Below, piece after piece: positions 16,259-58,407 of a DNA stretch of 64,000 nucleotides (position 1 is the stretch's first letter; every line of letters starts with the position of its first letter). Source of the stretch: Octopus vulgaris (lineage: Eukaryota); contig OX597824.1 of NCBI GenBank assembly GCA_951406725.2, positions 24,428,001 through 24,492,000 of the forward strand, given 5' to 3'. Under the pieces are notes generated by a model. The model worked only from the letters and a program-made list of their open reading frames with translations. It ran no database searches and was not told where the DNA came from. Position numbers and translations under genes: made by a program.

Positions 16259-16652
16259 TCTTTATATATAAAAGTGAGGTTGTGTGCTGTCTGTCTCCTA
16301 CGATTTAGATTCCTAACTACTCCCACATTTTGTGGTGCAGTTTAACCAAAACCGGGTATCTTATAGTCGTGATTCATATCGAGCCCTTCTGGGTATTAGC
16401 GCGCGTCTACGATGAGTCTACGATTTTTGAAAAAATTACCATCAATTTTTCCCATTTTTAATGCATTTTTGGCATATATAAGGGAAGTAACTCTCTAAAA
16501 ATTTATTATTAAATCTCAGAACGTAAAAAGCTACAGTAACACCCCCCTTGGTTGTTAGCCATATTGAGATGGCTATTATACTTTACATCTCTAAAAATGC
16601 TTATATAGTTATTTCCCTTACAAACTCGAGCAACGCCGGGCGATACTGCTAG
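16259..16652 (+). mobile_element. Non-autonomous Helitron-like element (second body type, same 3' end)
   Basis: 5' TC and a 3' end nearly identical to 4292-4663 (hairpin plus CTAG). Related 5' ends occur at about 27650 and 45178-45520. Confidence 0.75.
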
Positions 16653-27025: not shown

Positions 27026-27079
<54 letters not shown>

Positions 27080-27081
<2 letters not shown>

Positions 27082-27511
27082 CGTAAAGTGTACAAGCCAC
27101 TGGGGGTGGGTGTTACTGAAGCTTATAGCCCCAGGAGATCATCGTCTCCAGCTGGCTTTAGACACACTTTCTGTGCCCTTCTGATATTCCCCTCTCGAAA
27201 ACCTAAGTGACACGTACGGACTATAGTTTCGAGGTATTTGCCTCTCGTCAACGTACGGTAATCACCGGTTTTCGATTGGAGAGACCTGTTTGCGAATATC
27301 TATTTAATGTTTTTCCCAGCAACCACTGTCACTGATTTAGAAAAACTGTCTGAAAGCATTAAAAAATCTCCGAACGAGATGGAGACGATGATCTCCTGGG
27401 GCTATAAGCTTCAGTAACCCCCCCCCCAGTGGCTAGCCACATTCAGATGGCTAGTACACTTTACGTTGTCGAGCGGTTACTGTTTACATCTCGTTCGGAG
27501 ATTTATTAATG

Positions 27512-27514
<3 letters not shown>
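27080..27514. mobile_element. Penelope-like pLTR-derived element with nested inverted repeats in (TA)n
   Basis: IR 27080-27150 / 27380-27467 and a second IR 27354-27381 / 27487-27514, with an internal hammerhead. Confidence 0.75.
27213..27257 (-). ncRNA. Minimal type I hammerhead ribozyme (C3U variant)
   Basis: CGTACG-TTGACGA-GAGG-CAAATA-CCTC-GAAAC-TATA-GTC-CGTACG: stems I, II and III, a GUC triplet and a palindromic loop III. Confidence 0.75.
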
Positions 27515-27555
<41 letters not shown>

Positions 27556-28218
27556 TAAGCAAATATATTCGCAAACACCGACATTAGTCAATAGAACAGG
27601 AATTCATTTTGAATAAATCTTGGCTTCTTATTAACAAGTTTGTTTTGCTATTATATAAAATCTGTTCTGTCTGTCTGTGTGTGTGTCTTCTAGGATCTCG
27701 GGCATCCTCCATCCGATTGCGCTCAAATTTGATATGTAGATACCGACGGTATCAGGGCGTGTATAAGTCTTGGAAAAATTACAAGAATCGATTCCAGGTG
27801 AGAATGCGATCGATAAAGCTATGGGAACGTGCATTTGTAATATCGTTTTTCTTGGAATAAAAAAAAAAAGTTTATCTTTATTTCTTCTTTTGCTGGTGTC
27901 TCAAATTTAGGTTTAATCAGTGTTTCTCAAAGGGGAGGCCTATGGGACGGTCGGACAAGTTGTTTTGAGAATATTTGGTTTAAATGTTTGACAACTCAGC
28001 ACCGTCTATTGGACGGGGGGCGTTTTGCTCGTATATATAATATGAAGGATACGGAAAAATAAGAAGTACTTCTGCACGTGACTAGCTGATAATAACCTTT
28101 GTTCTGCGCAGTACAACGTATAGATGAATGTATGAGGCATTTCTTAAGTTTTGGTTTATTGGCTACCAATCAAATCCCTATGTATAGCTAATTAACTTTC
28201 AACGCAAATTATTAAAGA

Positions 28219-47385: not shown

Positions 47386-47393
<8 letters not shown>

Positions 47394-47830
47394 ATAGAGG
47401 GCATTATTACACATAAATGCCTCACACTAGGAGGGACAAAGTCATTACTACCAAAAATTATACTAATCATACCCAAATGCAGTTTTTCAAAGCAAGACAT
47501 TTAAAAAATGAATCAGTTCTGCTGACGATCATTAGACGCAAGTTGTATGTGAAATCACGGTGATACAGAACATAATTCATTTTTTAAATGTCTTGCTTTG
47601 AAAAACTGCATTTGGGTATGATTAGTATAATTTTTGGTAGTAATGACTTTGTCCCTCCTAGTGTGAGGCATTTATGTGTAATAATGCCCTCTATACAATA
47701 TAGATATAATTAATTTGTTCAAAAGAAAAAAATTATTTTCGGATTCTTTTCTTTTATGAGGTTTTCACGCTAGCTACCCGATAATTTCTTGTTAAGATCC
47801 CTTATTAAGAGATTATCCTTAATTGTTAAA

Positions 47831-58280: not shown

Positions 58281-58407
58281 ATTGATTGATTGATTGATTC
58301 TAGATTCAGCTCACAAATTTAAAAATTTGTGGGCAACCAGCCATGAGGGACGAGCTCACATCCCTTTGATTACCAGTCAAGTGCTTTACCAATTAAGCTA
58401 AACTGCC
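58281..58407 (-). pseudogene. Degenerate tRNA (Thr-like, GGT loop) fused to a hairpin and CR1-like terminal motif
   Basis: 73-nt cloverleaf at 58407-58335 (D stem GCTT/AAGC, anticodon arm CTTGA-CTGGTAA-TCAAA, T stem GTGAG/CTCAT), then GCCCACAAATTT-TT-AAATTTGTGAGCTGAATCTAG(AATC)n. Confidence 0.7.

Follow-up and report, generated by a model that had tools for sequence, protein, structure and literature searches.

A hammerhead-bearing animal non-LTR retrozyme family in Octopus vulgaris, likely written into (TA)n repeats by Penelope-like enzymes

In a 64,000-nt stretch of the Octopus vulgaris genome (contig OX597824.1, positions 24,428,001 to 24,492,000 of the forward strand; hereafter the window), 434 bases of unrelated sequence (27081-27514) lie between two (TA)n runs, which we read from the window at 27028..27080 on the left and 27515..27558 on the right. 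What is this insert, and how did it come to lie in a microsatellite? The window DNA is soft-masked with a GC content of 0.28-0.44, and the element overlaps no stop-to-stop ORF of more than 60 aa. A model that saw only the letters (the sequence-only reading) had proposed a Penelope-type insertion carrying a minimal hammerhead ribozyme. We think it likely that the element is a non-coding copy of a hammerhead-bearing animal non-LTR retrozyme that was written into (TA)n by the enzymes of Penelope-like elements (PLEs) acting in trans. It represents a new family of a known kind and, on its own, is ordinary repeat annotation.

We began with the ribozyme motif. The minus strand from 27257 to 27213 reads CGTACG-TTGACGA-GAGG-CAAATA-CCTC-GAAAC-TATA-GTC-CGTACG, identical on re-reading to the letters originally claimed. 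These 45 nt (27213..27257, minus strand) match all 45 positions of the Rfam model Hammerhead_1 (RF00163, model 1-45) with 30.3 bits and an E-value of 1.7e-5 when 601 nt are searched. The score falls below the RF00163 gathering score of 34, outside membership at the curated threshold, which is why a scan of the whole window at gathering thresholds listed no hammerhead. When nine loci were scanned together (28 kb) at E<=0.05, none was listed either, since hammerheads of about 30 bits exceed that E-value there. The motif is nevertheless beyond chance: genome-wide, its exact 26-nt versions number 88 and 353, versus 0 for backwards-read controls. The core comprises U3 (27251), U4 G5 A6 C7, G8 (27246), A9, G12 A13 A14, the pair A15.1-U16.1 and C17 (27219). 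Every position is standard except C3, which is replaced by a U able to wobble-pair with G8. From its position in the Rfam alignment, self-cleavage is predicted after C17, that is, after the GUC of GUCC, between 27219 and 27218 (27218..27219, minus strand).

The motif had been described as a clean minimal hammerhead. It is a real, full-length type I motif but not a minimal one, with a helix I of 6 bp, a helix II of 4 bp closed by the loop CAAAUA, a helix III of 2 bp with a 4-nt loop (AC-UAUA-GU), and a covarying distal extension. With the distal helix GGUGAU/GUCACU and an internal loop UAC/U, the extended type I hammerhead spans 27206..27266 on the minus strand. The short helix III with its palindromic loop, TATA in the DNA, was correctly recognised. 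The palindromic stem I (CGTACG/CGTACG) is present in the window copy but only there, most relatives having CGTACG/CGTATG or CATACG/CGTATG. Classic metazoan type I hammerheads are of the schistosome SM-alpha and newt satellite type. The window hammerhead resembles the metazoan type I members of RF00163 in its loop II, which equals the Rfam consensus CAAAUA, in its 6-bp helix I and 4-bp helix II and in its short helix III; it differs from them in having U3 for C3 and a score under the gathering threshold. By the definitions in the sections of PMC4209133 cited here, a min-HHR lacks helix III and loop 3 in the single motif and has a long helix II, so that the original assignment to the minimal hammerheads of PLEs gives way to the canonical metazoan type I form of retrozymes. 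What the hammerheads of the family do have in common with the PLE hammerheads described in those sections is a palindromic helix III and covariation of U3 with A8.

We then asked how the rest of the insert is built. It consists of two arms joined head to head. The full-unit arm (27081..27386, RNA sense minus) contains a segment A' (27386..27354), a body with the hammerhead and a B region that runs to End 1 (...CACTTTACGT) at 27081; it matches relatives over q134-420 at 80-93% and has an 18-nt deletion near 27095 relative to both the other arm and relatives. The inverted 5'-truncated arm (27377..27514, RNA sense plus) contains the 3' part of B (27377-27467), which pairs with 27081-27153 at 94-95%, followed by a tail. 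This tail is 47 nt long (GTCGAGCGG...GGAGATTTATTAATGCTT; 27468..27514, plus strand) and ends in End 2; it includes the hairpin ATCTC-GTTCG-GAGAT, and its last 33 nt are an inverted copy of 27354-27386. Read against relatives, the junction of the arms lies at 27380..27381, with TG as a 2-nt microhomology. At the boundary of End 1 and tail, 27462-27476 (plus strand; TACGTTGTCGAGCGG) looks similar to the hammerhead's 5' part (TACGTTGACGAGAGG), a likeness that is absent from sister families and is probably due to chance.

Two overlapping pairs of inverted repeats had been claimed, at 27080-27150/27380-27467 and 27354-27381/27487-27514, and both exist close to these bounds. The first (27103-27153/27377-27427, 51 nt at 94%, then 27081-27099/27448-27466, 19 nt at 95%, with an 18-nt indel between) is B against B. 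The second (27354-27386/27482-27514, 33 nt at 91%) is the A' in the tail against the A' that opens the full unit. A single junction (27380/27381) together with the 47-nt tail therefore yields both pairs, and the two successive template-switch inversions proposed to explain them are not needed. Relatives, moreover, have their junctions elsewhere: head-to-head joints fall at different bases in the window copy and in L002, L006, L014 and L019, so every insertion made its own. With arms that are 94-95% alike and an end branch of 0.025, the window copy is a moderately old insertion. It has one hammerhead, and its full-unit arm is tail-less; alone it could give neither a unit-length RNA nor a dimer in cis.

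A search of the element's own 2.8-Gb genome returned 3151 first-look candidates, 40 of which were scored and gave 159 matching pieces on many contigs at 73-100% identity; over 283 columns, the element shares 97% identity with its closest relative. Mapping of unit structure at 30 loci revealed a non-coding unit of about 306-352 nt which, in RNA sense, consists of A' (28-33 nt), the body with the hammerhead, B (about 108 nt, with End 1 ...CACTTTACGTT) and the 47-nt tail (with End 2 ...TTAATGCTT), the last part of the tail repeating A'. Tandem units occur: predicted cleavage sites are spaced 352 nt in L029, and the spacing in sister families is 357-360 nt. Single-arm copies terminate in a common End 1 or End 2, and their 5' ends are ragged. 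At nine loci, TSDs read by eye measure 4-13 nt (L003, 8; L006, 7-10; L012, 7; L015, 6; L017, 7; L019, 13; L027, 12; L052, 4; L064, 8). Common 3' ends, ragged 5' ends, variable TSDs and the lack of an ORF together indicate a non-autonomous retroelement rather than a DNA transposon.

The two ends obey a strict rule. Among 29 loci sampled by overall similarity, 15 had only one recognisable end, and all 14 two-ended insertions carried one End 1 and one End 2. The same was true of 8/8 and 9/9 two-ended insertions in a pair of sister families whose units measure 357-360 nt and whose loci were picked from pattern hits, for a total of 31/31. As to targets, the 46 termini at the 29 loci border (TA)n in 22 cases, other AT-rich DNA in 13 and other sequence in 11. 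Neither End 1 nor End 2 of the DNA copies coincides with the predicted cleavage site.

These features place the family with the animal non-LTR retrozymes as described in sections of PMC7229834, a class characterised as lacking an LTR, PBS and PPT and as being expressed as unit-length linear and circular RNA. Like them, it carries a canonical type I hammerhead in a short non-coding unit (about 300 nt here, within 150-450 bp) of low GC content (0.43, and 0.43-0.49 across the units measured), it occurs as tandem and as dispersed copies with TSDs of more than 4 bp (4-13 nt), it shares its genome with autonomous PLEs, and its predicted monomer is self-paired, the monomer circles folding below shuffled sequence with z-scores of -2.5 to -3.5. 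Unlike them, its insertions are mostly two-armed, single or 5'-truncated rather than long arrays, its U3 is accompanied by A8 or G8 rather than forming part of C3-G8, and the family is known here from DNA alone. Reads from four runs of uncertain kind, compared with a young sister array, gave short contigs only, and the one wrap-around joint among them (1305 to 1106, unit about 360 nt) is as compatible with tandem DNA as with a circle. The element is not itself an autonomous PLE, which would have an ORF with a PLE reverse transcriptase and GIY-YIG; it contains no long ORF.

We next considered the unusual U3. Classic mutational studies found that single changes of C3 strongly lower activity. The sequence-only reading had suggested comparing the native U3 with a repaired C3, which implies a lesion. 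U3 is instead the family-wide state and not damage. Exact 26-nt patterns number 88 with U3/G8, 353 with U3/A8 and 1 with C3/G8, that is, 441 genome-wide matches with U3 versus a single one with C3. Likewise, of 109 hammerhead-bearing segments extracted by a regular expression that left position 3 free, 107 have U3, one has A3 (L026) and one has C3 (L031). Within 53 copies, the 3-8 pair is UA in 27, UG in 25 and something else in 1. The U3.G8 version is carried by the window lineage and by a young sister family of 357-nt units with end branches of at most 0.017 and near-identical copies. With more than 440 exact copies, the supposedly invariant C3 is replaceable throughout a family, while position 8 toggles between A and G. 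A U3-A8 pair in place of C3-G8 is Watson-Crick, active and naturally occurring (PMC3088659), and its covariation has been reported in Schistosoma PLE hammerheads, with about 1,300 hits (in sections of PMC4209133). In the literature searched for C3U or U3-A8, we found no published test of U3.G8 activity. The U.G wobble at the core 3-8 pair of the window lineage would be expected to weaken cleavage, not necessarily to abolish it.

On quick midpoint-rooted trees of 63 units, parsimony places at least five to six changes of state at position 8, in either direction. The direction of change between G8 and A8 is not fixed by these data, because the samples behind trees and counts were partly picked by the hammerhead pattern, because the trees are in effect unrooted, and because C7-G8 is a CpG, whose decay favours G to A at position 8. 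Relatives with C3-G8 were tried as an outgroup with which to root the change; in a quick tree of 79 rows, however, they (L075, L077, L078, L082 and L084) nest inside the U3-A8 clade. These five lie downstream of a LINE 3' end and make up a retrozyme subfamily with C3, reading either CCGACGA (C4) or CTGATGA (canonical). The canonical CTGATGA version may have arisen through CpG decay of the C4 form.

The fold around this core is conserved. In 53 family copies, 95.6% of cells are paired, versus at most 51.4% when partners are slid, and both sides of a pair have changed in 80 cells, versus 30.3 +/- 5.8 in shuffles, none of 500 of which reach the observed value; a different count of pairing in the hammerhead helices gave 97.3%. 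Covariation thus backs all three helices around the core as well as the distal helix beyond the UAC/U loop (27266..27206), with the caveat that helix I varies largely through CpG decay, which is able to mimic compensation. Helix III is palindromic or quasi-palindromic in every subfamily seen (ACTATAGT, ACTGCAGT, ACTGCGGT, ACCGCGGT, ACCGGT, ACTAGT and ACCTGGGT), and its two inner pairs contribute 14 and 20 double-change cells in the 53 copies. Since a 4-nt loop cannot pair within one molecule, the palindrome supports pairing between two ribozymes (PMC4209133 and PMC6765202, in the sections cited). Dimeric action of the family hammerhead is therefore plausible, judging from these sequences.

The strongest competitor to our reading accepts the same retroelement but regards the hammerhead as a passenger or relic, such that self-cleavage plays no part in the spread of the family and the U3.G8 lineages, the window copy included, are catalytically dead. 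The near-invariance of C3 among known hammerheads (PMC3088659) speaks for it, and so do the ends of the DNA copies, which lie away from the predicted cleavage site; in addition, according to sections of PMC8557442, Naiad PLEs manage to spread although they have no hammerheads, and hammerheads may be no more than parasites of PLEs. Against a decayed ribozyme speak helices I, II and III and a distal helix that stay paired through compensatory changes (95.6%, 80 cells, 0/500), a helix III that is palindromic in at least six sequence versions, a 3-8 position that is pairable in all but one of 53 copies (UA 27, UG 25), and a young sister family whose near-identical copies bear U3.G8. We consider it unlikely that the hammerhead is a passenger or relic, though this deserves more weight than the other alternatives below.

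If the element is a retrozyme, what moved it? PLE insertions, according to sections of PMC8557442, are 5'-truncated, form partial tandems and carry at their 5' end an inverted copy that is itself 5'-truncated; they have a tail of 30-40 bp at one end or the other and favour (TA)n. Every one of these marks is seen in our family, so the original proposal of a Penelope-type insertion into (TA)n is borne out as far as its footprint goes, with the tail at one end. The family differs from the PLEs of that source in its tail, which measures 47 nt, and in its hammerhead, which is canonical rather than a min-HHR. The strict pairing of End 1 with End 2 (31/31) is not mentioned in the sections of PMC8557442 or PMC4209133 cited here. 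Unlike PLEs, too, the family has no RT/GIY-YIG ORF and no similarity to the PLE copies examined. Against the main reading weigh this lack of similarity to PLE copies, the sub-gathering score of the hammerhead, its U3.G8 pair, the single hammerhead and tail-less full-unit arm of the window copy, the half of the termini that lie outside pure (TA)n, and the sampling, which was partly guided by hammerhead patterns and left 15 loci with one recognisable end.

A candidate source of the enzymes is present. A GIY-YIG search of the genome gave 6136 first-look candidates, and many of the matches listed, which number at least 148, fall in an open frame of 781 aa. Four GIY-YIG PLE copies are about 98% alike, have direct pLTRs of 456 bp and lie within (TA)n. 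A Penelope-like family that is young and has an intact ORF of 781 aa, with GIY-YIG at its C terminus, is found at L114 (430-5672) and L115-L117, as well as at L102-L113. The 781-aa PLE is a possible driver of the retrozyme. When units of six subfamilies were compared with 16 GIY-YIG loci by blastn, the sole match was a stray fragment that flanks L117, and blastn found no PLE sequence in the window. Because no sequence is shared with the PLE copies examined, we infer mobilisation by PLEs from the insertion footprint alone. The pLTRs of related copies have a candidate hammerhead of their own, with a U3-A8 core and the palindrome ACATGT (TTGATAAGGTTC...GAACCGAAACATGT), which a regular expression found at 5 of the 16 loci (L109-L113) and a looser one in degenerate form in L114; Rfam did not recognise this candidate at E<=10. 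PLEs have been proposed as the drivers of animal non-LTR retrozymes in sections of PMC7229834, where LINEs are left open, and also in the abstract of Li et al. 2026 (bioRxiv 10.64898/2026.07.22.740005). The insertion footprints described here support the proposal that PLEs move animal retrozymes.

We propose a mechanism that resembles twin priming. A retrozyme unit would be transcribed as a multimer, which the hammerhead would cut, probably as a dimer held together by the palindromic helix III, into monomers that are perhaps circularised. A PLE endonuclease would nick both strands of the TA repeat, and both of the resulting 3' ends would initiate cDNA synthesis on the retrozyme RNA, using two set points, End 1 and End 2, that are separated by 47 nt. 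The two cDNAs would grow inward and be joined by microhomology at an arbitrary point, leaving a full unit that faces a truncated inverted arm. In L1 twin priming, inversions form when an inverted 5' arm is joined to the direct 3' arm at microhomology, within one pair of TSDs. The joint between inverted and direct arm at microhomology is common to both systems. The outer end of the inverted arm is arbitrary in L1, whereas both outer ends are fixed here, 47 nt apart. Fixed unlike ends in 31/31 insertions, combined with junctions specific to each copy, constrain models of the still undefined process of Penelope integration.

A bolder version of this reading can be put forward only tentatively. 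It holds that the core has evolved through a U.G wobble, with C-G, U.G and U-A replacing one another at the 3-8 pair on the family tree, and that the U3.G8 hammerhead, being carried by a recently active family, is functional in vivo, though probably as a dimer only. Independently of this, it takes the End 1/End 2 rule to reflect two fixed start positions of reverse transcription flanking the 47-nt hairpin tail. If this is true, the rule of one End 1 and one End 2 would amount to a telomerase-like template boundary that can be mapped from genome sequence alone. The natural U.G, U-A and C-G sequences set up a simple comparison of cleavage, monomer versus dimer.

A second alternative is that a LINE and not a PLE mobilises the family. 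The sequence-only reading had suggested a search for copies linked to RT/GIY-YIG ORFs. None are linked in this way, and where RT ORFs do adjoin copies, they are those of an APE-type LINE nested in the family. This LINE, whose ORF1 has zf-CCHC and whose ORF2 has Exo_endo_phos, RVT_1 and zf-RVT, lies between two family hammerheads that are spaced about 5.8-7.4 kb; examples are L069 (1567-7014), L070 and L071, and its 3' ends are found at loci L072-L101. It is inserted in sense orientation at a single site within the unit (TTCATCGAAAACCGGTG), which lies about 5 nt upstream of the extended hammerhead and is duplicated as a TSD of 15-17 nt. The corresponding target in the window (CCAATCGAAAACCGGTG; 27262..27278, minus strand) is unoccupied; in other family copies it is occupied. 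The last 300 nt of the LINE gave 285 first-look candidates in the genome, from which 30 loci were fetched. Beyond the LINE 3' end, the sequence runs on into a hammerhead unit at this same site in 20 of the 30, into the 5' edge of U2 snRNA genes in 4, into a duplicated target and then another LINE copy in 4, and into other DNA in 2; L096 and L097 contain full U2 (179-185 bits).

The linkage of copies to RT ORFs of LINE type is what commends this LINE as a driver, together with the inversions that L1 makes by twin priming and the place left for LINEs in the sections of PMC7229834 cited above. Yet it is site-specific, its targets being TTCATCG... in the unit and U2 snRNA genes at their 5' edge, and makes its own 15-17-nt TSD, whereas the family itself targets (TA)n or AT-rich DNA. 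Its 3' end (...ATAATAAAGATAAA) is not common to the unit, and the family's tail, its pair of fixed ends and its partial tandems fit the description of PLEs in sections of PMC8557442. Mobilisation by a LINE thus strikes us as quite improbable, and we retain PLEs as the likely source of the enzymes. The nested LINE is probably of the Tx1 type and Keno-like, with the retrozyme as its second target. Like Keno and the Tx1-clade LINEs described in sections of PMC4494074, it is an APE+RT LINE at a fixed site of U2 snRNA genes, and relatives in that clade have likewise switched to another transposon (Tx1 into Tx1D; Tx1-Mar into Mariner). It differs from them in that the second target is a hammerhead retrozyme, entered about 5 nt upstream of the ribozyme; its clade is assigned by likeness, not by phylogeny. 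A U2-targeting LINE lineage thus appears to take a retrozyme as its second target, a parasite specialising on a parasite.

The weakest alternative, a foldback or MITE-type DNA transposon with long inverted repeats, a TA target duplication and a hammerhead present by chance or capture, has in its favour inverted repeats of 51-90 nt, TA-rich targets and a window copy whose TSD is unreadable inside (TA)n, but we regard it as very improbable indeed, because the repeats are not terminal (the 47-nt tail offsets them, leaving the right outer 47 nt partnerless at the left end), inner junctions vary by copy, and relatives include single-arm 5'-truncated copies and tandem units with TSDs of 4-13 nt. Terminal inverted repeats with a fixed TSD, which the sequence-only reading had named as the signature that would count against its own view, were looked for and not seen.

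Several other features of the window were noted. An element at 47386 had been called unrelated in sequence but similar in architecture. The former is correct; the architectural likeness is loose only, since 47386-47702 is a hairpin whose 128-nt arms form a perfect inverted repeat (100% complementary) around a spacer of 61 nt, lying beside (TA)n, in which Rfam found no hammerhead at E<=1. Elsewhere, a 59-nt fragment at 16528-16586 shows about 81% similarity to the family's B region. Two tRNA genes were found at the Rfam gathering level, at 488-559 on the plus strand (61.6 bits) and at 58335-58407 on the minus strand (38.6 bits).
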